Under the pieces are notes generated by a model. That model was not told the DNA's origin. It ran no database searches and saw only the letters and a list, made by a program, of their open reading frames with translations. Position numbers and translations under genes: made by a program. A DNA stretch of 64,000 bases from an uncultured Candidatus Saccharibacteria bacterium (GTDB lineage Bacteria; Patescibacteriota; Saccharimonadia; Saccharimonadales; Saccharimonadaceae), in assembly GCA_963522905.1 (NCBI GenBank), contig CAUQYS010000003.1, positions 42,845 to 106,844 on the forward strand, in the 5' to 3' direction. Below, one piece after another: positions 7,511 to 51,725 of this stretch. The stretch's first letter is position 1. Every line of letters starts with the position of its first letter.

Positions 7511-7939
7511 CTAGGTAGTCGAAGCGCCGGTGTTGCTGCTGTTGGTCGTGGTGTTGATGTTGCCACCAGGGATGATGGTGTTGATAACAAAGTTCACCGC
7601 GGCGTAGGCGAGCAGCGCCACTACGACACCAACGAGGGCATACATAATCGTATTCTTCGCGCCTTGTACCTGTGATGAATTACCACCAGAGACGACATAG
7701 CGAATACCACCGAAGATGATCATAATAACCGCGATAGCACCAACGAGGAATAGCATGATGTTGCTTACCCGTGTGAAGATACCGGCGTCACCAAAGAGAT
7801 CGGCAGGCTGGTCTTTGCCCCGTGAGCGGCTGGCACCATCTGACACGCCACCAATTGCAGCGCTGGGCGGTGCAGCAGCAATTATCCCACCCCCGATGAG
7901 GGCAAGAGCACTGATAGATAGTAGACATTTTTTTAGCAT
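7511..7939 (-). CDS. VirB2/TrbC-like two-helix pilin-like protein (solitary paralog)
   Basis: Trimmed to ATG 7937-7939 (MLKKCLLSISALALIGG...). A signal peptide is followed by helix IMLFLVGAIAVIMIIFGGIRY, loop VVSGGNSSQVQGAKNTIMY and helix ALVGVVVALLAYAAVNFV. Confidence 0.7.
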   Translation of the reverse strand: MLKKCLLSISALALIGGGIIAAAPPSAAIGGVSDGASRSRGKDQPADLFGDAGIFTRVSNIMLFLVGAIAVIMIIFGGIRYVVSGGNSSQVQGAKNTIMYALVGVVVALLAYAAVNFVINTIIPGGNINTTTNSSNTGASTT

Positions 7940-8310: not shown

Positions 8311-8403
8311 GGAGGAGTACCCAAGTGGCTGAAGGGGACGGTTTGCTAAATCGTTAGTGTGGGGAGACCTGCAGCGGGAGTTCGAATCTCCCCTCCTCCG
8401 CCA
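8311..8403 (+). tRNA. tRNA-Ser (anticodon GCT), CCA encoded
   Basis: Manual fold: acceptor GGAGGAG/CTCCTCC, anticodon stem ACGGT/ATCGT with loop TTGCTAA, long variable arm, T-arm GGGAG-TTCGAAT-CTCCC. Confidence 0.9.
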
Positions 8404-12099: not shown

Positions 12100-12176
12100 T
12101 GGTACACTCGGCGCGATTCGAACGCACGACCTTTGGCTCCGCAAGCCAACGCTCTATCCAGCTGAGCTACGAGTGC
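12100..12176 (-). tRNA. tRNA-Arg, anticodon GCG by manual fold, CCA encoded
   Basis: The reverse complement reads GCACTCG TA GCTC AGCTGGATA GAGC G TTGGC TTGCGGA GCCAA AGGTC GTGCG TTCGAAT CGCGC CGAGTGT A CCA. It has a G1-U72 wobble and loop TTGCGGA, giving anticodon GCG. Confidence 0.85.
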
Positions 12177-12293: not shown

Positions 12294-12929
12294 CTACTGC
12301 AGCCGCAGGTAAATAATCAACCGCTCAAGCAAGTCGGGCTTGCGCTCGCTCATTGGGAGGTGAGAGGCGATGAGATCAACGAGTTGCTCGCCCACATCCT
12401 CGGGGAAGTACATGACGATAGGCATAGCGAAGCGTTTACGTGGGATGAGCGTGATCCAATTCTGCGTGGGCTTGGCAGTAACGCTAAAGGAGCGGAAGGT
12501 GTCGTACGAGTAAGTCCGCTGGCCCACCACCACCTCGGCGTGGCTAGCGCTATAATTCAGTAGGGCAGCTGGCCGCTGCAGCGAGACGATCAATGCCACC
12601 GCCATAATGGGAATGAGCAGCGCAAAGGTGTAGGACTTAAACAAAAAGATCGAAATTGCGAAGAGCACCACCACAACCACGCCAAAAATCACATACCAGC
12701 CACGGGGGCGGGTGGTATCATTTACCTCGCGCTCTTGCCAGATGAGGAGCGGCTCGGTGGGGTCGGGGAAGGGCGAAACCTGCGACGAATTGCTATTGGC
12801 TTCACTCGGCCCACGGCGAATCTCGAGCGGTGGGTTGGGCTCATCAGTAGCCTGCGTCTCAGCACGAGTGGTGCGCGATGGGTCGGCGGCATCTGAGGAT
12901 GATGACTGATCGAATTGCGATGGCTGCAT
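12294..12929 (-). CDS. Hypothetical membrane protein (two central TM helices)
   Basis: Trimmed to ATG 12927-12929 (MQPSQFDQSSS...), because TGcTATACT lies 6 nt upstream (leaderless). TM helices are WYVIFGVVVVVLFAISIFLF and FALLIPIMAVALIVSL. Confidence 0.55.
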   Translation of the reverse strand: MQPSQFDQSSSSDAADPSRTTRAETQATDEPNPPLEIRRGPSEANSNSSQVSPFPDPTEPLLIWQEREVNDTTRPRGWYVIFGVVVVVLFAISIFLFKSYTFALLIPIMAVALIVSLQRPAALLNYSASHAEVVVGQRTYSYDTFRSFSVTAKPTQNWITLIPRKRFAMPIVMYFPEDVGEQLVDLIASHLPMSERKPDLLERLIIYLRLQ

Positions 12930-13107
12930 ATGTTTAGTATAGCATAGAGTAGAACTCAGGGCATACTCCATCGGATAAGAATGGTAGAAAAATAAGATAA
13001 AGAAAGATGAAGATGAATTTTTGAGATCTGGGCTATGTGGCGATTTGATTCAATATAAAATACCCTCAGTAACACACCTGCTACCGAGGGTTCGAGTAAG
13101 CCCAACA

Positions 13108-13196
13108 TGGCGGAGAGAGTGGGATTCGAACCCACGGTAGGGGGTGCCTACGCCGGTTTTCAAGACCGGTACCTTCAACCACTCGGTCATCTCTCC
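13108..13196 (-). tRNA. tRNA-Ser (anticodon TGA), CCA encoded
   Basis: The reverse complement reads GGAGAGATGACCGAGTGGTTGAAGGTACCGGTCTTGAAAACCGG...GTGGGTTCGAATCCCACTCTCTCCGCCA. Anticodon loop is CTTGAAA. Confidence 0.9.
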
Positions 13197-15051: not shown

Positions 15052-15492
15052 TTATTGCCCTTGGTTGGCACCGATATTGACGACGACGAAGTTGACGAGC
15101 GCGTAGGCGATGATCGCAACGACAAGACCAACGATGGCGTACATGATGGTGTTCTTAGCGCCAGTAACGGCATTTGAGTCACCATTTGATACGGTATAGC
15201 GCACACCGCCGATGACGATCATGATAACAGCGACTGCACCAACGATGAAGAGGATCACGTTGACGACAGTTTGAAAGATACCAGTGCCTTCAGTACAGCC
15301 TTCTTTTTCGCTACCAAAGAGACAACTTACTTGGTCGTTCCCCTTAGCAGAGCCAACTCCCTTCCTGAGGCCAAGACCGTTGTCGGATGCAGCTGCTGCG
15401 CCAACGTGTGGAGCTACCAGCCCAGCAACACCTGCAGCTAGCACTGGCACGGCGAGGAGTGTAAGCATAGCTTTTTTGATATTGATTTTCAT
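15052..15492 (-). CDS. VirB2/TrbC-like pilin-like protein (array member 6)
   Basis: Signal peptide MKINIKKAMLTLLAVPVLAAG and Cys pair CLFGSEKEGC. Module: ILFIVGAVAVIMIVIGGVRYTVSNGDSNAVTGAKNTIMYAIVGLVVAIIAYALVNFV. Confidence 0.75.
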   Translation of the reverse strand: MKINIKKAMLTLLAVPVLAAGVAGLVAPHVGAAAASDNGLGLRKGVGSAKGNDQVSCLFGSEKEGCTEGTGIFQTVVNVILFIVGAVAVIMIVIGGVRYTVSNGDSNAVTGAKNTIMYAIVGLVVAIIAYALVNFVVVNIGANQGQ

Positions 15493-15649: not shown

Positions 15650-16102
15650 TTAGACGTAATTATATTGGGCGGTTGGAGTGGATTGGCCACCACCACTCAC
15701 GAGGTTATCAACGACGAAATTGACCATGGCATAGGCGAGAATAGCCACAACAAGGCCGACAATAGCGTAGAGAATGGTATTTTTGGCACCCTGGATGCCG
15801 TTTGAGTCGCCGTTAGATGTGGTGTAGCGAATACCACCGATGACGATCATGACGACGGAGATAGCGCCGAGGGCAAAGAGCATGATGTCGATGATGCTTT
15901 TGATAGCTGAGCCGATGGTTATTTGGTTGCTGTCTCCACCAGCACCCTTGATGCCTTCCTTAACCTTTTCCTTTGCCGTAGTGCTTGCCGCAAAGGTGTT
16001 GATGGGTGATGGCGCTGCTGCGCTGATCGATGGGGCAATGGCACCAGCTACAACAGTGGAGCAGATGCTTGCGCTGAGAAGTATTTTTGTAAAGGTATTC
16101 AT
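15650..16102 (-). CDS. VirB2/TrbC-like pilin-like protein (array member 5)
   Basis: Signal peptide MNTFTKILLSASICSTVVAGA. Module: IMLFALGAISVVMIVIGGIRYTTSNGDSNGIQGAKNTILYAIVGLVVAILAYAMVNFV. SD GGGAG lies upstream. Confidence 0.75.
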   Translation of the reverse strand: MNTFTKILLSASICSTVVAGAIAPSISAAAPSPINTFAASTTAKEKVKEGIKGAGGDSNQITIGSAIKSIIDIMLFALGAISVVMIVIGGIRYTTSNGDSNGIQGAKNTILYAIVGLVVAILAYAMVNFVVDNLVSGGGQSTPTAQYNYV

Positions 16103-23839: not shown

Positions 23840-23914
23840 AACGATATCATATCATATCGAGGTGCGATGTAAAGAGCAGCGATATAATATCCAAAAAACA
23901 TAGCTTGCCAGCCA

Positions 23915-23923
23915 TGCTACAAT
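23915..23923 (+). promoter_or_regulatory. Extended -10 promoter (TGcTACAAT), leaderless
   Basis: TGcTACAAT is followed by 6 nt (actcct) and ATG 23930. Confidence 0.6.
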
Positions 23924-23929
23924 ACTCCT

Positions 23930-25396: not shown

Positions 25397-25481
25397 CTAG
25401 CTCTCCGATAACAATGGGAAGGGTCGTACATAATGCTTTGTTGTTATATAAATATAATGAAGCTAGATATTCTCTGCGTTA

Positions 25482-25672
25482 GCTCCACCTCCCCATACTT
25501 CATCCGATGGAGTGTGAAAACTCGTTGTAATAACGAGTTTTCAGCCCAGCGCAAGAGGTCGATATCCAGTGAATATCGACCCTTATAGCGTTCCTGAGGA
25601 TGGAGTGTGGGGAGGTGGAGCGTGAGATAATGCCAAAGTGCTGAGTTTTTGTGCGCTATCACCAACAGAGGT
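25482..25672 (+). ncRNA. Candidate structured RNA / intergenic repeat element, copy E1
   Basis: Closing stem GCTCCACCTCCCCA (25482-25495) / TGGGGAGGTGGAGC (25608-25621), extended by CTTCATCC/GGATGGAG with one T-G wobble. Internal hairpins GAAAACTCGTT/AACGAGTTTTC and GGTCGATAT/ATATCGACC. Collinear sequence blocks are shared with 51487..51623 (minus). Function unknown. Confidence 0.45.
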
Positions 25673-25708: not shown

Positions 25709-25764
25709 TTGCCAAGCACCATATCTGGCGCCTATAGTAGGACCCAGACGCTACATATATAGCG
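25709..25764 (+). promoter_or_regulatory. Candidate nrd promoter (TTGCCA-N18-TATAGT) overlapped by two AT-centred palindromes
   Basis: Palindrome GCACCATATCTGGCGC (25716-25731, 12/16 self-complementary) fills the spacer. Palindrome CGCTACATATATAGCG (25749-25764, 14/16) lies just past the expected start site. Their centres are 33 bp apart. Confidence 0.35.
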
Positions 25765-25867
25765 AGCACACATAAACACGGGAGAGACAACAATACAGCT
25801 TGGCTCCAGGCGTGCCCTGGTGGCTGGTTTTGTGCACCGTATGATAAGGAGCCTAAGGGGAGGGATA

Positions 25868-28640: not shown

Positions 28641-29618
28641 ATGGGCATTTTAGGATCAGGCGTACGCGATGGCTTGCAGCTCAAGCCGGTGCGCTATGAC
28701 TGGGCGTACCGCCTATACAACCAAGCGGTGGCTAACACGTGGTTCCCTAATGAGGTACAGTTGAGTCAGGATTTGGCGGATTTTGAGAAATTGAGTGAGG
28801 ACGAAAAGCATGCCCTCAAGATGGTGATTAGCTACCTTAACCCTAACGAGCTGCTGATTAATAAATCGCTGGCTTTTGGTATTTACCCCTGCGTGAACGC
28901 CGCCGAGTGCCACCTGTATCTTTCGAAACAGATGTGGGAAGAGGCGAATCACTTTATGACCTTCGAGTATATTATCGAGACCTTCCCGTTTGACCGTGAG
29001 GAAATTTATGCGGCGGGCTGGGGTAAAAAATCCTTGGCGGATAAAGCCGCCTTCCAGACCAAATACGTCACGCGTATGATGGAAGAGCGCCCGGATGTGA
29101 CGACGCTGGAGGGCAAGAAGGACTTTGTGCGCAACTTGGTGGCGTATAACATCGTGCTGGAGGGGATTTGGTTCTACAGTGGTTTTATGGTGGGAATGAG
29201 CTTCCGCCGGCGCAACCTACTGCGCAACGTTGGCACGCTGCTGGACTGGGTAACGAAGGACGAAAATCTACACCTGGAGTTTGGCATTAACCTGCTGCTG
29301 ACTATTTTGCACGAAAACCCGGACTTGCAGACCGAGGAGTTTGCTGAGGAAATCCGCAGCTTGATTCTCGAAGCTGTTGAGCTCGAGAAAGCGTATAACA
29401 AAGACATGCTGCCGCGCGGCATTCTGGGCCTAAACGCTGACTACGTCAACCAGTATGTCATGTATATGACTGACCGGCGGCTGGAAGAGCTCGGCTTTGA
29501 GCCAGAGTATAACGTGACGAACCCGGCCAAGTGGATGGCCGCTGCCAACGACACGCTGGAGCTGGTGAACTTCTTCGAGAGTACGAATACGAGTTATGAG
29601 GTGAATACGACGAAGTAG
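28641..29618 (+). CDS. nrdB: Ribonucleotide reductase beta subunit, class Ic-like (Phe at the radical-Tyr position)
   Basis: SD AAGGAGG. Metal ligands: NPNELLI (Glu where class Ia has Asp), EEANH (ExxH), VLEGIWFYSGF, DENLH (ExxH). The residue at His+4 is Phe (HFMTF), not Tyr. C-terminal tail FFESTNTSYEV. Confidence 0.88.
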   Translation: MGILGSGVRDGLQLKPVRYDWAYRLYNQAVANTWFPNEVQLSQDLADFEKLSEDEKHALKMVISYLNPNELLINKSLAFGIYPCVNAAECHLYLSKQMWEEANHFMTFEYIIETFPFDREEIYAAGWGKKSLADKAAFQTKYVTRMMEERPDVTTLEGKKDFVRNLVAYNIVLEGIWFYSGFMVGMSFRRRNLLRNVGTLLDWVTKDENLHLEFGINLLLTILHENPDLQTEEFAEEIRSLILEAVELEKAYNKDMLPRGILGLNADYVNQYVMYMTDRRLEELGFEPEYNVTNPAKWMAAANDTLELVNFFESTNTSYEVNTTK

Positions 29619-29657: not shown

Positions 29658-29772
29658 GCTCTCACTCCATCACCAGACCGAAAATGTTCCGGCCAGAATA
29701 TGCAACAGAGCTTTTCCGCCTGCTTGGTCGCTGGCCTCCAGATATTTTCTTGTCTGGCAATGGAGTGAGAGC
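29658..29772. other. 115-nt rod-like imperfect hairpin (inverted repeat) 40 nt after the nrdB stop (E2)
   Basis: Paired segments are GCTCTCACTCCAT/ATGGAGTGAGAGC (13 bp), CCAGAC/GTCTGG, GAAAAT/ATTTTC, GGCCAG/CTGGCC and CAACAG/CTGcTTG. They are separated by small internal loops. Confidence 0.5.
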
Positions 29773-29829: not shown

Positions 29830-30225
29830 ATGAATACCCTCACACAAACCATCCTCGATACCGTGCCAGTTGGTGCGCTGGCCACCGTCAATCGCGACCG
29901 CACGCCGCTGGTGACGCCGCTGCACTTTGTGCGCGTGGGGGATGCGATTGCCTGGCTGTCTGATCGTGAGGCGCGCCACTCGCACAACGCCTTTCGCACT
30001 GGGTGGGCAGAGTTTGTGGTGTGGAATGATGCCAAGCAGGCCGTCTATCTCCACACCACAGTGCGCGAAGCCCGCGAGGACGAGGTCGCGGCCATCACTG
30101 AGGCATACACGGCCAAGCTGGGGAGCTTCCGCCCGCAGTGTGTGCAGCCGCAGTGGTATGTCGCACCAATTGGCCAACTGGATGATAATTCCACAACAGA
30201 AAATTGGGTGCACTACCTTGCATAA
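29830..30225 (+). CDS. Pyridoxamine 5'-phosphate oxidase-family (FMN-binding split-barrel) protein
   Basis: 131 aa. Contains ILDTVPVGALATVNRDRTPLVTPLHFV...AIAWLSDREARHSHN. Preferred over the antisense ORF 29662..30246. Confidence 0.6.
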   Translation: MNTLTQTILDTVPVGALATVNRDRTPLVTPLHFVRVGDAIAWLSDREARHSHNAFRTGWAEFVVWNDAKQAVYLHTTVREAREDEVAAITEAYTAKLGSFRPQCVQPQWYVAPIGQLDDNSTTENWVHYLA

Positions 30226-38032: not shown

Positions 38033-39187
38033 CTACTTTGTTGAGGTGAAGTTGCTAAACGACTTGGTGGCAGCGTCGAGCGTCTTGCTGTTGGTGGCGA
38101 CGTAGTCGGCGATGGCTTTGCGGTTGCCACTGGCGGTTTTGAGCTTCTGGAGGTAGCTCTTGAGGATGGATAGCTGGTAGCTCATTTCACGTGCGTAGAC
38201 GCGGTCGAGCGCGCCAGTCAGGTAAGCGTCTTCGAGTGTTTTGGAGAGTTTGTCGGAGTAGGCTTTTTCGGTCTTTTTGGCATCGCCGACTAGCTCGGTC
38301 TTGATCTTCGCATCCTTGAGCGACGACTTGAGTTCTGTCCCCATACTACCCAGCGAGGTGGTGAGCGTGGTGTTCATGCTCGAGAGCTCATTTTCTGTCA
38401 GGCGTGATTGCTGCTCCTTGGTGGCTGCTTGCAGTGTCTCGATGCGGGCTAGGGTGCTTTGGGCTTGCTTAGTGTAGTTGGGCTGGCTATTGACCATCAT
38501 CATGATAATGGCAAAGGCAAGTAGGAGTACGCCGCCGATCAGGCCAAACACCGCAAAGCGGTTAATCTGTACTGGTTGCTGCTTGGGTGCAATCTCGTTG
38601 AGGTAGTCTACTGGGAAGGAGGTGTCTGGTTCGCTTGCTGCACCAAGGTCTGCGTCGGTAGCAGCCATAGCAGTGGCGCCGAGTGGCTGCTGCGGGTTGG
38701 TATATGCCTGGCCATTGTAGCCGCCCGATTGTGGCTGGTAGGGTTGCGCAGTGGGCTGACTAGGGCTTGGGTAGGCGCTCGCATAGCTCTGTGATTGGTC
38801 TGCGCTAGTGTGTGAACTGGGTTGGTTAATTGGTTGGGGTGCCGTAGCTGGTGGCTGTTGCTCGGGCTGTGGCGCGTAGTGGTATGACTGGCCTGCGCCA
38901 TAGCTCGCGGCTGGTTGGTCGTGTGATGGCTGATACGGCTGGTAGGAAGCAGCTTGGGGCTGCGGTGATGAAGGAGTGGGCTGCTCTTGATACTGTGGCT
39001 GAGTTGGTTGGCTCTGTGTTGCCGGATTATATGCACCATAGCCATAATCCTGCGCACCCGACGCCGCTTGGGTAGCATAGTAGGGGACATACGGAGCAGC
39101 TGCCGGCGCATTGGGTTGCGGGGGCTGTTGCTCGGGCTGCGGGGCCGAACCATTCGGTTGGGGAGTGTATGGTTGCTGTGGATTCAT
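38033..39187 (-). CDS. Hypothetical single-pass membrane protein with Pro/Gln/Tyr-rich N-terminal half and helical C-terminal ectodomain
   Basis: Trimmed to ATG 39185-39187 (MNPQQPYTPQPNG...). TGgTATTAT lies 7 nt upstream (leaderless). TM helix FAVFGLIGGVLLLAFAIIMMMV. Confidence 0.6.
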   Translation of the reverse strand: MNPQQPYTPQPNGSAPQPEQQPPQPNAPAAAPYVPYYATQAASGAQDYGYGAYNPATQSQPTQPQYQEQPTPSSPQPQAASYQPYQPSHDQPAASYGAGQSYHYAPQPEQQPPATAPQPINQPSSHTSADQSQSYASAYPSPSQPTAQPYQPQSGGYNGQAYTNPQQPLGATAMAATDADLGAASEPDTSFPVDYLNEIAPKQQPVQINRFAVFGLIGGVLLLAFAIIMMMVNSQPNYTKQAQSTLARIETLQAATKEQQSRLTENELSSMNTTLTTSLGSMGTELKSSLKDAKIKTELVGDAKKTEKAYSDKLSKTLEDAYLTGALDRVYAREMSYQLSILKSYLQKLKTASGNRKAIADYVATNSKTLDAATKSFSNFTSTK

Positions 39188-42518: not shown

Positions 42519-42989
42519 TTAGTAGTAATAATAGTACCACCAAGATGGCTTGGACAATACACCAACAAACACAAGTATCCAGAAAAGCCAGATAAGACAC
42601 CAGCAGACTGACCCAAAGATGCCCCAGCCCAGACTAACGTTACCCCACGTTGTAGACATACCGGCCTCCTTAGACTTATTGCGCGAAATAATGCCAAGGA
42701 GAATACCACCGATAGAGATACCAAAGAAGCTCAAGACGCATCCAATAACACCCAGTGTCTCACCCGGGTTATCATAACGAACGGGGTAGGCATATGGTGT
42801 TGGCTGCGGCGCTGGTGCAGCAGGTTGCTGGTATTGATATGTTGGCTGTGGCTGGGGTACTGGTGCGGCTGGCTGCTGGTATTGGTATGTCTGCTGCGGC
42901 TGCGGTTGTGGTTGGGCTACCGGTTGTGGTTGCACAGCTGGCTGTGGTTGCGGGGCAGCAGGTTGCTGGGGTGTTGGCTGGTTGTTCAT
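42519..42989 (-). CDS. Hypothetical membrane protein with Pro/Gln-rich N-terminus and Trp/Tyr C-terminal tail
   Basis: PQ-rich repeats (QQPAAPVPQPQPTYQYQQPAAPAPQP), then 3 hydrophobic helices. It ends SKPSWWYYYYY. SD GAGGAG and -10 TATAAT lie upstream. Confidence 0.6.
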   Translation of the reverse strand: MNNQPTPQQPAAPQPQPAVQPQPVAQPQPQPQQTYQYQQPAAPVPQPQPTYQYQQPAAPAPQPTPYAYPVRYDNPGETLGVIGCVLSFFGISIGGILLGIISRNKSKEAGMSTTWGNVSLGWGIFGSVCWCLIWLFWILVFVGVLSKPSWWYYYYY

Positions 42990-43119: not shown

Positions 43120-43695
43120 TTACAGCCAACCAATCTCGCGGCAGAGGGCGTCGACTTGCTGGTGGAGTTCGGTGAGATCGTGGCTGTTGGAGATAAAGTG
43201 GTCGGCAATGGCGATGGGGCCACCTTTCTCGATATCTTCAATTTCCGACCAGTCGCGGGCGATTGCTTCCTGCGCGGTAAAGGGCCGCTCGGGTCGCTGG
43301 GCGAGGCGGCGGTGACGGAGCTGTTTGGGTGCGACGATGGCCGCGACAACGAGCTCACCTGGGAAGTGGTGGGTGAGGTATTTGTACTCTGTCCAGGAGT
43401 AGAGCCCGTCAAAGAGGATGTGGCGCTGCCCAGCGGCGGCAAGGCGCTGCATTTGCTCGGCAGCAGTGCGGATGATGATGTCTTTGCCAGCCTCTTCGCG
43501 CCAGGCTTTGCGAAATTCGGCTTGTGATTGCGGGGTGATGGCGATGCCGCGGCGGCGCATTTCGTCGTAGAGTATGCCACCAGCGTAAACCTTGGGGATG
43601 CCAAGGCGTGCGACGTGGTTGACTGCCTCGCTCTTGCCTGCGCCCGAGAGGCCAACGAAGGCAAGGATTGTCGTCGGGTGAGATGGATGATTCAT
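43120..43695 (-). CDS. P-loop nucleotide/nucleoside kinase-like protein (CoaE/UPF0200-like)
   Basis: Walker A ILAFVGLSGAGKSEA. It has the overall size and layout of small NMP/dephospho-CoA kinase-like proteins. Substrate unknown. Confidence 0.6.
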   Translation of the reverse strand: MNHPSHPTTILAFVGLSGAGKSEAVNHVARLGIPKVYAGGILYDEMRRRGIAITPQSQAEFRKAWREEAGKDIIIRTAAEQMQRLAAAGQRHILFDGLYSWTEYKYLTHHFPGELVVAAIVAPKQLRHRRLAQRPERPFTAQEAIARDWSEIEDIEKGGPIAIADHFISNSHDLTELHQQVDALCREIGWL

Positions 43696-43701
43696 ATCTC
43701 T

Positions 43702-43710
43702 AGTATAGCA
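43702..43710 (-). promoter_or_regulatory. Extended -10 promoter (TGcTATACT, minus strand), leaderless
   Basis: The reverse complement of AGTATAGCA is TGCTATACT. Six nt follow, then the ATG at 43695. Confidence 0.6.
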
Positions 43711-43761
43711 GATAATAGCGCTTATGGTTGGCAGTGCGAGGAATGGTACAATAAATATAGT

Positions 43762-45943: not shown

Positions 45944-46012
45944 AGCGGGTGGCAATTAGCAAGGGAGAGGTGCGGCTGCGAGATACTCCCATGCCGCTCA
46001 GCGCTTCACCAA

Positions 46013-46021
46013 TGCTATACT
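46013..46021 (+). promoter_or_regulatory. Extended -10 promoter (TGcTATACT), leaderless polA
   Basis: TGcTATACT is followed by 6 nt (agaact) and ATG 46028. Confidence 0.6.
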
Positions 46022-46027
46022 AGAACT

Positions 46028-48595
46028 ATGATGAAGCGCCTAGTGATTATTGATGGCAAAAGTGTGTTCTACCGTGGGTACTATGCCATGCCCAACCTTT
46101 CGACGGCTGATGGCACACCAACTGGCGGGGTGTATGGCTTTGCGGCGCTGAGCCTAGAGCTGATCAAGCGCCTCCAGCCAGACTATGTGTGCGTGGCGTG
46201 GGACAAGCCCAAGACGAATATCCGTCGCCGTCTTGCCATTTACGACCAATACAAGGCTGGTCGCAAGCCGGCTCCGCCAGATTTTTACGCCCAGATACCG
46301 CTACTCCACGAGCTTTTGCAGGCCTTTGGTTGGCCGCTATATGAGTTTGATGAATATGAGGCAGACGATATTATGGCGACGCTCGATGCTCAGGCTGAGC
46401 AGGAGGGGGATATCGAGACGTATCTTATAACGAGCGACCTTGATGCCTTGCAAATACTCGACCAAAATACCTACCTCTATGCCCTGAAGAAAGGCTTGAC
46501 CAATATCGACAAATTCGACATCGCTGCCTTTGAGCAGCGCTATGGTATTCGGATTAGCCAGTTCCTCGACTTTAAGAGCCTCAAGGGCGATGCGTCGGAT
46601 AATATCCCGGGCGTGCCAGGCGTGGGGGAGAAGACGGCGGTTACGTTGCTGCAGCAATTCGATACGCTTGACAACCTTTATGATAACCTCTGGCAGGTCA
46701 AGGATACGCTGCGGCGCAAGCTGGAGCAGGGCAAAGATTCGGCCTATATGAGCCGCGAGCTGGCGCGGCTATATACCGATGCACCAGTGACGCTTGACCG
46801 AGCAGCGATGGCGATGGATAACTGTGACCCAGCGGCGGTGCGGGCGATGTTGCAGCGGCTGGAGTTTCGTAGTTTGCTGCGCCAACTCCCGCCACAGATG
46901 CAGGCGGCAGAGAGTACTCAGCCACCCGATGCACCAGTGGTGCAGCATGCGGCCGAGCTGCCTGCTCACCAGGCTAAGGCGCTCTTCCTGATGGCCAAAG
47001 AGCTGCTGGTCTGGCCGGTCGAGGGCGGTGTCTGGGTGAGCCACGAGCGGGGCAAGGCGGCCCGCCTGAGCTGGCGTGATGCGGTTGATGTTATCCCGCA
47101 TGTGCCGATTGTCGGGCACCGCACCAAGGAGCTATTACGCCACTTACTGGCTCGTGGCGTGCGGCAGCTGCCAGTCGTGAAGCATGATACCGCCCAAGGG
47201 TCGTTTTTGCTTAATCCCCTGCGCACGTCGCGGGCACTGGCTGATCTCGCAGGGCTGGAATCGCTTGATGACCCACGCCTGGCCATTAGTGCACTGTGGG
47301 CGGTGTACGATGAGCAAGCTCAGGCACTCGATGCGCTGCCCGAGCTTGCCCGGGTGGCCCGGACAATGGACTTTCCGCTTATTCCTGTGCTAGCGCGGAT
47401 GGAGTGGCGCGGTATCCGGCTCGATAGCCGCACACTTGCGGCGATGCAGCGCACCTTGAGTAGCGAGATCGCCGAGTTGCAGCAGCAGATCTATGGCATG
47501 GTGGGGTATGAGCTTAATATTGGCAGCCCGGCCCAGCTAGCCGAGGCGCTCTTCGTCAAGCTTCAGCTGCCAACAGCGGGCATCAAGAAGGGCAAGACGG
47601 GTTACTCGACGAGCCAGAAGGAGCTGGATAAGCTCCGGCCGCATCACCCGATTATTGGGCTAGTGGAGCGCTACCGCGAGCTGACGAAGCTGCAAAATAC
47701 GTATGTCGAGGCGCTGCCGCAGCTGACCGATGACGCGGGCTATATCCATACCACCTTCAACCAAGATGTGGTGGCGACGGGCCGGCTCAGTAGTACCGAC
47801 CCAAATTTGCAAAACATCCCTATCCGCAGTGAGCTGGGGCGGCACGTTCGCGATGCCTTTGTGCCAGCGCCGGGCAATGTGTTTGTCAATGCCGACTATT
47901 CACAGTTTGAGCTGCGCCTAGCGGCGGTGCTGTCGGGGGAGGAGGCGATGATTCGTGATTTTAATACCGATATCGACATCCATGCCAACACCGCCGCCCA
48001 GGTGTATGGTGTGCCGCTCGATGTCGTGACGAAAGAGCAGCGCCGCCGAGCCAAGGTGGTGAACTTTGGTGTGCTGTATGGGATGAGCCAGCATGGCCTG
48101 GCCGCCGCCGCGCAGATGAGCTATGCCGAGGCGCAGCACTTCATCGATGAATACTACCGCCTCCGGCCGAAGCTCAAAGCCTATATGGCGCAGACTATCC
48201 AGCAAGCGCATGATGCGGGTTTCGTCCAGACGCTGTTTGGTCGCCGCCGCTGGACGCCGGATGTTGCGTCGCGCAACTTTGCGGTGCGCAGCGCTGCCGA
48301 GCGAGCGGCTGCCAATATGCCGATCCAAGGTACCGAGGCTGACCTCATGAAGCTTGCCATGCTGGCGGTGGAAGACAAGCTGGCCCAGGCTGGAGAGCAG
48401 CTAGCCGACGGCGATGGCCAGCCGATCGGTTGGCAGGTGGTACAGATCCACGATAGCATTATGGTAGAGTGCCCGCGTACTCATGCCGAGCAGGTAGGCC
48501 GCATCCTGCGCGAGACAATGGAGCATATTTATCCGCAGCTTGGCGTCAAGCTCAAGGTCGATGTCTCGATTGGTGAGCATTGGGGAGCGGTGTAA
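46028..48595 (+). CDS. polA: DNA polymerase I (5' nuclease plus polymerase; 3'-5' exonuclease motifs degenerate)
   Basis: 5' nuclease region LVIIDGKSVFYRGYYA...YEADDIMATL. Polymerase motifs DYSQFELRLAA, RRRAKVVNFGVLYG and QIHDSIMVE. The Exo I/II positions read LVWPVEGG and VGHRTKELL, lacking the DxE and NxxxD acids. Confidence 0.93.
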   Translation: MMKRLVIIDGKSVFYRGYYAMPNLSTADGTPTGGVYGFAALSLELIKRLQPDYVCVAWDKPKTNIRRRLAIYDQYKAGRKPAPPDFYAQIPLLHELLQAFGWPLYEFDEYEADDIMATLDAQAEQEGDIETYLITSDLDALQILDQNTYLYALKKGLTNIDKFDIAAFEQRYGIRISQFLDFKSLKGDASDNIPGVPGVGEKTAVTLLQQFDTLDNLYDNLWQVKDTLRRKLEQGKDSAYMSRELARLYTDAPVTLDRAAMAMDNCDPAAVRAMLQRLEFRSLLRQLPPQMQAAESTQPPDAPVVQHAAELPAHQAKALFLMAKELLVWPVEGGVWVSHERGKAARLSWRDAVDVIPHVPIVGHRTKELLRHLLARGVRQLPVVKHDTAQGSFLLNPLRTSRALADLAGLESLDDPRLAISALWAVYDEQAQALDALPELARVARTMDFPLIPVLARMEWRGIRLDSRTLAAMQRTLSSEIAELQQQIYGMVGYELNIGSPAQLAEALFVKLQLPTAGIKKGKTGYSTSQKELDKLRPHHPIIGLVERYRELTKLQNTYVEALPQLTDDAGYIHTTFNQDVVATGRLSSTDPNLQNIPIRSELGRHVRDAFVPAPGNVFVNADYSQFELRLAAVLSGEEAMIRDFNTDIDIHANTAAQVYGVPLDVVTKEQRRRAKVVNFGVLYGMSQHGLAAAAQMSYAEAQHFIDEYYRLRPKLKAYMAQTIQQAHDAGFVQTLFGRRRWTPDVASRNFAVRSAAERAAANMPIQGTEADLMKLAMLAVEDKLAQAGEQLADGDGQPIGWQVVQIHDSIMVECPRTHAEQVGRILRETMEHIYPQLGVKLKVDVSIGEHWGAV

Positions 48596-51486: not shown

Positions 51487-51623
51487 ACCTACTGTGGTTT
51501 TGCGCACCCTCTTATGAAATACCGTGACAGTTAGTTCTCTCCAGAGCACGGTTCTCTTGCGTAAGATCAAAAAAATTATTACAACTCCTCACACTCCATC
51601 CAATGAAGAAGCGGGGGAGGAGC
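51487..51623 (-). ncRNA. Candidate structured RNA / intergenic repeat element, copy E3 (paralog of 25482..25672)
   Basis: The minus strand reads GCTCCTCCCCCGCTTCTTCATTGGATGGAGTGTGAGGAGTTGTAATAATTTTTTTGATCTTACGCAAGAGAACCGTG...CACGGT...GGTGCGCAAAACCACAGTAGGT. It shares collinear blocks with E1: GCTCC, TCCCC, CTTCAT, GATGGAGTGTGA, GTTGTAATAA, CGCAAGAG and GTGCGC. Confidence 0.4.
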
Positions 51624-51716
51624 TTATACGCGGATAAAGATGGCTTTGAGGTATCGATTGTGCGATGACTCTGCGCGGATTGTCTGATGCTCATGCTAGC
51701 CACACCCCACCGCCAA

Positions 51717-51725
51717 TGGTATAAT
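51717..51725 (+). promoter_or_regulatory. Extended -10 promoter (TGgTATAAT), leaderless
   Basis: TGgTATAAT is followed by 7 nt and ATG 51733. Confidence 0.6.

Follow-up and report, generated by a model that had tools for sequence, protein, structure and literature searches.

E3, a probable decayed copy of a structured intergenic repeat family in Candidatus Saccharibacteria

Introduction

Is the intergenic segment E3 a second copy of E1, the element that precedes nrdAB, and does its hairpin behave as that of a structured RNA? Both segments lie in the window, i.e., the whole 64,000-nucleotide stretch of contig CAUQYS010000003.1 from an uncultured Candidatus Saccharibacteria bacterium that was analyzed here; E1 is on the plus strand and E3, 26 kb away, on the minus strand. 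The original prediction held that the two are diverged copies of one structured element, and that E3 has exchanged a hairpin of E1 for another with the structure kept. Saccharibacteria live as obligate epibionts and have genomes of about 1 Mb; to our knowledge very few regulators or non-coding RNAs have been described in them.

Results

E1 and E3 are homologous

All the sequence blocks and hairpins that had been listed for the minus strand of 51487-51623 are present there (Table 1). With the whole nrd-upstream intergenic region as query, the Smith-Waterman score against the E3 intergenic region, on its minus strand, is 46. Dinucleotide shuffles gave a mean of 18.4 (s.d. 2.2) and a maximum of 30, and none of 2000 reached 46; as controls, the best match in the rest of the window scored 31, and the opposite orientation 24. 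The pair is also listed independently by the repeat scan of the window (I3). Two blocks shared by the segments have no other exact occurrence in the window, namely GATGGAGTGTGA (51589-51600 on the minus strand in E3, 25506-25517 in E1) and GTTGTAATAA (51576-51585 on the minus strand in E3, 25524-25533 in E1). The predicted alignment is thus statistically significant, and the homology of E1 and E3 is upheld by the alignment score, by a match of E3 to the covariance model R1 described below, and by a common motif in the 3′ flank. A chance likeness, which has nothing in its favor except the shortness of the individual blocks, is contradicted by the alignment, the exact blocks, the model match and the collinear 3′ motif alike; its probability is practically negligible, and we consider it refuted.

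Table 1. Positions of the features of E1, E3 and their surroundings in the window.
Feature	Position	Strand	Remarks
Three tRNA genes	8311-8400; 12103-12176; 13111-13196	+; -; -	Sole Rfam matches in the window
E1	25478-25625	+	Intact three-way-junction member; R1 160.4 bits
E1 P1, 5′ arm	25482-25505	+	Inverted repeat I23; 24 nt, 92% complementary
E1 P2 hairpin, GAAAACUCG / loop UUGUAAUAA / CGAGUUUUC	25516-25542	+	6 pairs changed on both sides family-wide
E1 P3 hairpin, AAG-A-GGUCGAUAU..AUAUCGACC-CUU	25553-25584	+	6 pairs changed on both sides
E1 P1, 3′ arm	25598-25621	+	I23; covarying pairs; counterpart missing in E3
GTGCGC..ACAGAGGT	25651-25672	+	Unique flank of the nrd-locus copy; also in E3
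nrdAB promoter-like site, TTGCCA-18-TATAGT	25709-25738	+	Downstream of E1
E3	51490-51627	-	Degenerate, 3′-truncated family relic; R1 17.2 bits; Smith-Waterman 46 against E1; fold z -0.88
Counterpart in E3 of the 5′ outer segment and 5′ arm (AUAAGCUCCUCCCCCGCUUCUUCAUUG)	51601-51627	-	From alignments; invariant in 7 orthologues
Family core motif in E3, GATGGAGTGTG-AGGAG-TTGTAATAA	51576-51600	-	25-nt E3 type, against the 28-nt E1 type
CTCCTC / GAGGAG in E3	51585-51590 / 51617-51622		Coordinates as originally predicted
CGCAAGAG	51554-51561	-	Remnant of J2/3 and base of P3 in E3; read from sequence, aligned by R1
E3-specific hairpin, ACCGTG(20 nt)CACGGT	51521-51552	-	From sequence; has no place in the consensus fold
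ACCGTG / CACGGT, arms of the E3 hairpin	51547-51552 / 51521-51526	-	20 nt between; sits where P3 would be
GTGCGC	51502-51507	-	3′ end block of E3
ACAGTAGGT	51487-51495	-	3′ end block of E3
GTGCGC..ACAGTAGGT	51487-51507	-	Homologous to the unique sequence 3′ of the nrd-locus copy
Promoter-like site, TAGCCA-17-TATAAT with TG	51697-51725	+	HAD hydrolase gene; adjoins E3 on the other strand

E1 belongs to a family of more than 190 copies

A search for GATGGAGTGTG-N(3-10)-TTGTAATAA in one representative genome per species returned 87 stretches, against about 9 expected by chance. All except two of these (85/87) are in Candidatus Saccharibacteria (TM7) MAGs, often with several per genome, and the window itself is 93-96% identical to some Saccharibacteria MAGs that carry the element. 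The covariance model R1 was built from 74 distinct full-length copies that could be aligned over ~150 nt. Because the search pattern forces its two motifs to be invariant, i.e., the invariance of GATGGAGTGTG and TTGTAATAA in alignment A1 is imposed by it, an independent search was made in metagenome contigs with a pattern from the 3′ half, CAAGAGGTCGA..TCGACCCTTATAG. This search yielded at least 120 metagenome stretches; about 75 of those listed are full-length and score at least 120 bits by R1, so the 5′ half is conserved too. The 3′-half set includes variants of the P2 loop, which is mostly, though not always, UUGUAAUAA.

The E1-type element thus defined is ~150 nt long, or ~200 nt with its outer extensions, and is represented by more than 190 copies, nearly all of them in Candidatus Saccharibacteria MAGs and metagenome contigs. 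In the fetched loci (denoted L below), R1 recovers about 110 copies at 125-176 bits and a degraded tail at 50-90 bits; searching related genomes with a covariance model, as had been proposed, therefore did bring up many further copies. The family that had been predicted from two copies alone is accordingly substantiated by the 87 genome stretches, the at least 120 metagenome stretches, and the strong covariation in P2, P3 and the closing stem. On long contigs the density is about one copy per 30-60 kb, and we estimate 5-30 copies per genome, a number that is low for a selfish repeat and counts against a MITE/ERIC-like reading.

Rfam 15, applied to the window at the gathering threshold, gave the three tRNAs and no match to E1 or E3. 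At E-values up to 10, searches with E3, E1 and two other copies gave sub-threshold AgrB and noise; AgrB is the best Rfam match on the elements, at 25.6-28.1 bits against a gathering score of 40, and is confined to one P2 variant. We found no description of the E1-type element in Rfam or in the searchable literature. The Saccharibacteria/TM7 structured RNA found in the literature, lysM-TM7 (Weinberg 2017, PMC5737381), is unrelated to it. Structured intergenic repeats are known as a kind, and a CPR family with this architecture appears to be new. We discarded a phage or viral origin: no match to the family was found in 50,697 phage records, and the single IMG/VR match is an AT-rich chance match.

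The family fold is a three-way junction with covarying helices

The RNAalifold consensus is a three-way junction with conserved junction nucleotides, in which a long closing stem, P1, encloses two hairpins, P2 and P3. The outer part of P1 varies between loci and stays complementary; in L101 and L141 the inner arms are wholly different, and still pair. A short helix, P1a, is formed by UGGA/UCCN. P2, of ~13 bp, occurs with the stem variants GAAAACUCG, GAAAACAGA, GCUAAUCGG and GGCAAUCGG, each with its own complement, and P3 combines a near-invariant base (AAG-A-GGUCGA; AAGAGGUCGA/UCGACCCUU) with a covarying 5-bp tip. In the MAFFT alignment 97.5% of the cells assigned to helices are paired, compared with 41-54% when the partners are slid, and 248 cells are changed on both sides, compared with 18-38. 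The covariation score is 0.274, against 0.146 in shuffles (0/500), and compensatory changes are present in 15 of the 43 pairs. Between orthologues at one locus, a G-C pair of L058 is replaced by A-U in L057 and L079, a compensated change.

G·U pairs are far commoner than A·C pairs in the alignment of E1-type elements; therefore the folding strand is the strand given here, i.e., the plus strand for E1. Template switching at the DNA level can keep palindromes complementary without selection, and such palindrome correction could mimic part of the covariation; the variation of the P3 loop, CCAGUGA or CUGGGAG, looks like hairpin-loop flipping. A pseudoknot between CCCAG in J2/3 and CUGGG in the P3 loop was rejected, as 99 of 500 shuffles were equally good.

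E1 has all the helices and conserved junctions of this fold and scores 160.4 bits over the full model length, with a minimum free energy of -102.7 kcal/mol (z -9.4); E1 is itself part of the seed alignment of R1, and the independent 3′-half search finds the same architecture elsewhere.

The conserved core always holds an in-frame mini-ORF of 7 codons, ATG GAG TGT ... TTG TAA TAA (25506-25533 in E1), which in E3 has 6 codons after a 3-nt deletion (51576-51600, minus strand). We rejected this frame, ATGGAGTGTG..TTGTAATAA, as a coding sequence (MECENSL, or MECEEL in E3, before the two stops): it has no Shine-Dalgarno sequence, and its middle codons follow the stem covariation. The double stop and the preserved frame are curious, though judged non-coding. 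ORFs of 89 aa antisense to the elements, whose N-termini are unrelated, were likewise dismissed as spurious.

The element is not specific to nrd

Copies reside in intergenic DNA next to unrelated genes, including nrdAB, a spermidine-synthase-like gene, polA and type IV pilus genes. Common distances are 70-130 nt past the end of a gene, or 14-56 nt from where a convergent gene ends. In 30 contexts a copy shares its strand with the gene downstream, and in 49 the two are on opposite strands. A consistent association with particular gene classes, which had been raised as something to look for, is thus absent from these neighborhoods: the neighbors are unrelated and the orientations mixed.

These data bear on whether E1 and E3 are cis-regulatory leaders or riboswitches of nrd or of other genes. 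In favor of such a role, E1 and nrdA are on one strand, with E1 243 nt ahead of the nrdA start codon, and this position is conserved in several species. However, the promoter-like site of nrdAB is downstream of E1, which places E1 outside the likely nrd 5′ UTR, and E1 is therefore not an nrd leader; the orientation statistics (opposite strand in 49/79 contexts) speak against a riboswitch in general, as do the unrelated neighbors (pilus genes, polA, the spermidine-synthase-like gene). We regard a leader or riboswitch as highly improbable, and the description of E1 as an nrd-upstream element fits its position in the window and not the family, other copies of which flank unrelated genes in both orientations.

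Orientation is not biased with respect to the replication strand either: by local GC skew, 5 loci are co-oriented and 6 anti-oriented. An IS200/IS605-like single-stranded DNA transposon, or another replication-linked single-stranded DNA element, was discarded since orientation is not tied to the replication strand.

Several other features of the window were recorded. Directly after the -10 of the nrd promoter-like site is an AT-rich palindromic stretch (25740-25770; ctacatatatagcg) that resembles an NrdR box by eye. A separate long hairpin, E2 (29658-29772, z -9.0, arms GCTCTCACTCCAT.../...ATGGAGTGAGAGC), lies between the end of nrdB at 29618 and a plus-strand gene at 29830. R1 gives no match there, so E2 is a different element; in L044 the same ~85-nt core is reversed, with other closing arms and non-homologous flanks. 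E2 probably stands for another repeat family, likewise closed by a hairpin. Copies of the motif CTAGTATAGC(A) / GCTATACTAG are found in several intergenic regions (956-1006, 2704-2740, 12927-12961, 43693-43727 and 46006-46037; I6, I8, D19); the motif is probably a local promoter -10 context. Three stretches of ~200 nt, 63-72% identical to each other (7574-7783, 15073-15282 and 15701-15910; D1, D2), are probably paralogous genes, and the degenerate 48-nt and 26-31-nt direct repeats at 38850-39145 and 42801-42969, rich in TGG/CTG (D3, D6, D10), probably mark a repetitive low-complexity coding region.

Copies are inverted, deleted and polymorphic between genomes

About 20 loci are occupied by the element, and its presence or absence, as well as the orientation of the whole unit, vary between genomes. 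At the locus between a 176-aa and a 130-aa gene, the whole unit with its outer extensions is found in both orientations. Some sites appear, from their sequence, to be empty or remodeled in relatives. Where occupied and empty sites are compared, the junctions are remodeled; TA flanks are seen at E1, at the polA-upstream locus and at L053:3284, and are missing at other loci. In L032 and L033 a solo hairpin is left after deletion between two direct repeats, GAUGGAGUG, which directly follows the 5′ arm, and GGAGGGAGUG, which is part of the 3′ arm. Many MAG contigs terminate inside a copy. E1 and its flanks are 100% identical to L044 over ~200 nt, and nrdA is ~96% identical, i.e., differs by ~4%.

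The close relative L012 has an additional E1-type copy, within a 563-nt segment that is missing from the window at ~23905-23926. This segment (L012:3291-3852), flanked by direct repeats ACCATGCT, also holds a perfect TTGACA-17-TATATA promoter, a strong Shine-Dalgarno sequence and a hydrophobic mini-ORF of 22 aa (MEIILIWIAFAFLAILSINRED), which could be a small membrane peptide or a toxin-like gene.

In the pilus region of L025, L053, L035 and L070, three copies in the same orientation are 1-2 kb apart, the third being degraded; the genes between them are pilC-like, pilin-like, prepilin-peptidase and SurA-like. We rejected an integron attC/cassette array as an explanation: the genes between the same-orientation copies in L053 and L035 are those of type IV pili and other housekeeping functions, and there is no RYYYAAC/GTTRRRY pair.

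In comparisons between genomes, the core is exactly inverted between its arms at three loci, namely the nrd locus (L002), L019, L021, L075 and L081 relative to L005, and L072 relative to L014 and others. Exact core inversion would fit a family of invertible DNA switches, whose arms would be recombination sites and whose core would alter expression when flipped. The near-palindrome made by the inner arms and the adjacent GATGGAGTGTG points the same way, as does the neighboring hairpin E2, which is also flipped between the window and L044 (~96% identical). However, no sigma-70-like promoter was found inside or beside the elements, and in about one copy in three the last base of the putative -10, TATAGY, is C. 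The crossover points vary from case to case, the inner arms of L101 and L141 are unrelated, the spacer between the arms is merely ~92 bp, and no recombinase was seen nearby. Moreover, covarying internal hairpins are needless for a switch bound by proteins. We therefore find an invertible switch quite unlikely.

Consensus scans of the window, L053, L058 and L046 also found no sigma-70-like promoter or terminator adjoining the elements. This result bears on whether the copies are independent genes for trans-acting sRNAs, a multicopy family that might serve, e.g., as a protein sponge. Such genes would account for the preservation of each copy, whole and under structural constraint, at orthologous loci of many species, and for the strand asymmetry, the many GGA/GGAGG motifs and the modest copy number. 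Nevertheless, these scans show neither a promoter conserved at a fixed distance nor a terminator past the 3′ arm, and the 5′ flanks of different loci are unrelated; an sRNA family is unlikely, if slightly less so than a switch.

E3 has lost the helices of the family

In its R1 alignment E3 retains the 5′ outer segment, the 5′ arm, GAUGGAGUGUG, the UUGUAAUAA loop and CGCAAGAG, and scores 17.2 bits (E 0.0046), compared with 125-176 bits for family members. The counterpart of the 5′ arm of P1 is present, and the 3′ arm is gone, with ~55 nt missing relative to E1. In P2 the loop is retained, the 5′ strand has shrunk from 8 to 5 nt (AGGAG), a U-rich sequence takes the place of the 3′ strand, and there is no pairing. 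In the region of P3 and J3/1 (AUAGYG), only CGCAAGAG survives of the base AAGAGGUCGA/UCGACCCUU, an unrelated hairpin occupies the remainder, and the J3/1 motif CUUAUAG is missing. On neither strand is the predicted fold of E3 better than that of shuffles (minus strand, z -0.9; plus strand, z +0.3).

E3 has orthologues with matching flanks in six other genomes. In three of these (L007, L010, L018) the ACCGTG arm of the E3 hairpin has become ACCGUA or ACCAUA and CACGGU is unchanged, i.e., the G-to-A changes are uncompensated, and the RNAalifold alignment of the 7 genomes has double changes in 0 of 82 predicted pairs. Thus, we conclude that the hairpin swap is a replacement during decay and not covariation, and the compensatory exchange that had been claimed for ACCGTG/CACGGT does not stand. 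Nor is it how the members of this family vary: they keep the base of P3 near-invariant and covary in the distal 5 bp alone, and in E3 all of it has been replaced.

The origin of E3 is indicated by its 3′ end. Among 89 loci, GTGCGC..ACAG(T)AGGT was found only at the orthologues of E3 and of E1, with ~0.06 matches expected by chance, and the motif is placed outside the repeat proper, in the unique flank of the nrd-locus copy. Since it shares this unique 3′ flank, E3 is an old inverted duplicate of the nrd-locus copy with its flank, and not the result of a separate transposition. It arose when the nrd-locus copy, with at least 50 nt of 3′ flanking sequence, was duplicated in inverted orientation; the 3′ arm, P2 and P3 were lost later.

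The 282-nt intergenic region of E3 is ~90% invariant over 7 species-level genomes, compared with ~84% in the flanking coding sequence. This is unexpected for a dead relic and counts against reading E3 as one; the conservation may reflect the neighboring promoter and terminator, or a new role of E3. An alternative is that E3 has diverged into a functional sister element, i.e., an RNA with an architecture of its own. The region is at least as conserved as the flanking coding sequence, and far more so than some neighboring stretches (0.2-0.6), and the 3-nt deletion in the P2 region preserves the mini-frame. Against this, the fold z-scores, the 0 of 82 covarying pairs and the uncompensated changes in the minus-strand hairpin all argue, no promoter or terminator of a minus-strand unit was found by scanning, the region contains the promoter-like site of the HAD gene as well as the end of the gene upstream, which could account for the constraint, and the pairwise identity of the window and L018, ~94%, is the genome average. 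A functional E3 is doubtful, and in our assessment E3 probably no longer performs the activity inferred for the family.

Discussion

Taken together, these data favor, with a probability of roughly 0.7, the reading that E3 is a decayed, 3′-truncated paralogue of E1, and that the E1-type family is a non-autonomous, MITE/ERIC-like repeat under selection. The E1-type elements are homologous members of one family, share a covarying fold with strand asymmetry, and are dispersed, inverted and deleted among genomes; E3, by itself, is an ordinary fossil copy.

The closest known repeats are ERIC/IRU, BOX, RUP and the Correia elements (CREE) of Neisseria. Like E1-type elements, these are 100-200 bp long, have imperfect terminal inverted repeats that give a long stem, and occur in few to hundreds of intergenic copies in either orientation, often between convergent genes or within operons, with presence/absence differences between relatives and, presumably for the E1 type as well, co-transcription with the neighbors. 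In contrast to ERIC-type repeats and CREE, E1-type elements have a branched three-way junction with two covarying internal hairpins, closing arms that vary by locus yet remain complementary, a low copy number, no target duplication or IHF-like site that we could see, and a host in a reduced-genome CPR lineage.

With MITEs the family shares its short, non-coding nature, terminal inverted repeats (24-bp arms, 92% complementary, with outer parts that differ by locus), multilocus and orientation-independent occurrence, polymorphism, and the breaking of assemblies. Unlike transposase sites, which should be conserved, the outer arms are not, and inspection of the 8-kb loci showed no autonomous parent, i.e., no element with a transposase and matching ends. 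Because no target-site duplication, transposase or parent element was found, the claim of mobility rests on comparisons between genomes. Orthologous copies that are intact across species set the family further apart from MITEs, and suggest selection at the level of the host or of the structure.

Invertons such as fimS likewise consist of a short segment between inverted repeats, of which both orientations occur among related genomes; the E1-type element differs in having no internal promoter or adjacent recombinase, and in its variable arms and RNA-like internal fold. RNA classes from comparative genomics (Rfam-type classes, lysM-TM7, HEARO) resemble it in their conserved junctions, abundant compensatory changes in helices and narrow phylogenetic range. 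Compared with Rfam-type classes, it has no Rfam 15 match and no consistent gene association or orientation, and its behavior additionally looks like DNA mobility and inversion.

On the reading that we prefer, a non-autonomous MITE/ERIC-like repeat would settle in intergenic DNA in either orientation, and its copies would be carried on the transcripts of neighboring genes, as no promoter of their own was seen. The element would be kept intact by selection on a folded single strand, most likely RNA, or else single-stranded DNA. The long stem could act as a transcript barrier or processing site, and the conserved junction and loops as a recognition surface for a putative protein.

More tentatively, the E1-type element may be a new class of functional RNA in Saccharibacteria (CPR), spread and switched on or off by DNA inversion between its closing arms, with E3 as a fossil or a neofunctionalized offshoot; we think this possible, and clearly less probable than the repeat. 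If it were true, the three-way junction and loops would be predicted to bind a protein or ligand, or to catalyze a reaction.

For the annotation of the window, E3 is to be entered as a relic, and E1 as a member of the family and not as an nrd-specific regulator. An element of ~150 nt that is intact at ~20 loci in dozens of species may be a new functional RNA in organisms where almost none are known; alternatively, it is an unusually well-preserved mobile repeat that remodels intergenic DNA by inversion and by deletion to hairpins, and that breaks MAG assemblies. On either reading, the E1-type element merits a covariance model and annotation, and provides a handle on recombination and transcript architecture in CPR bacteria.
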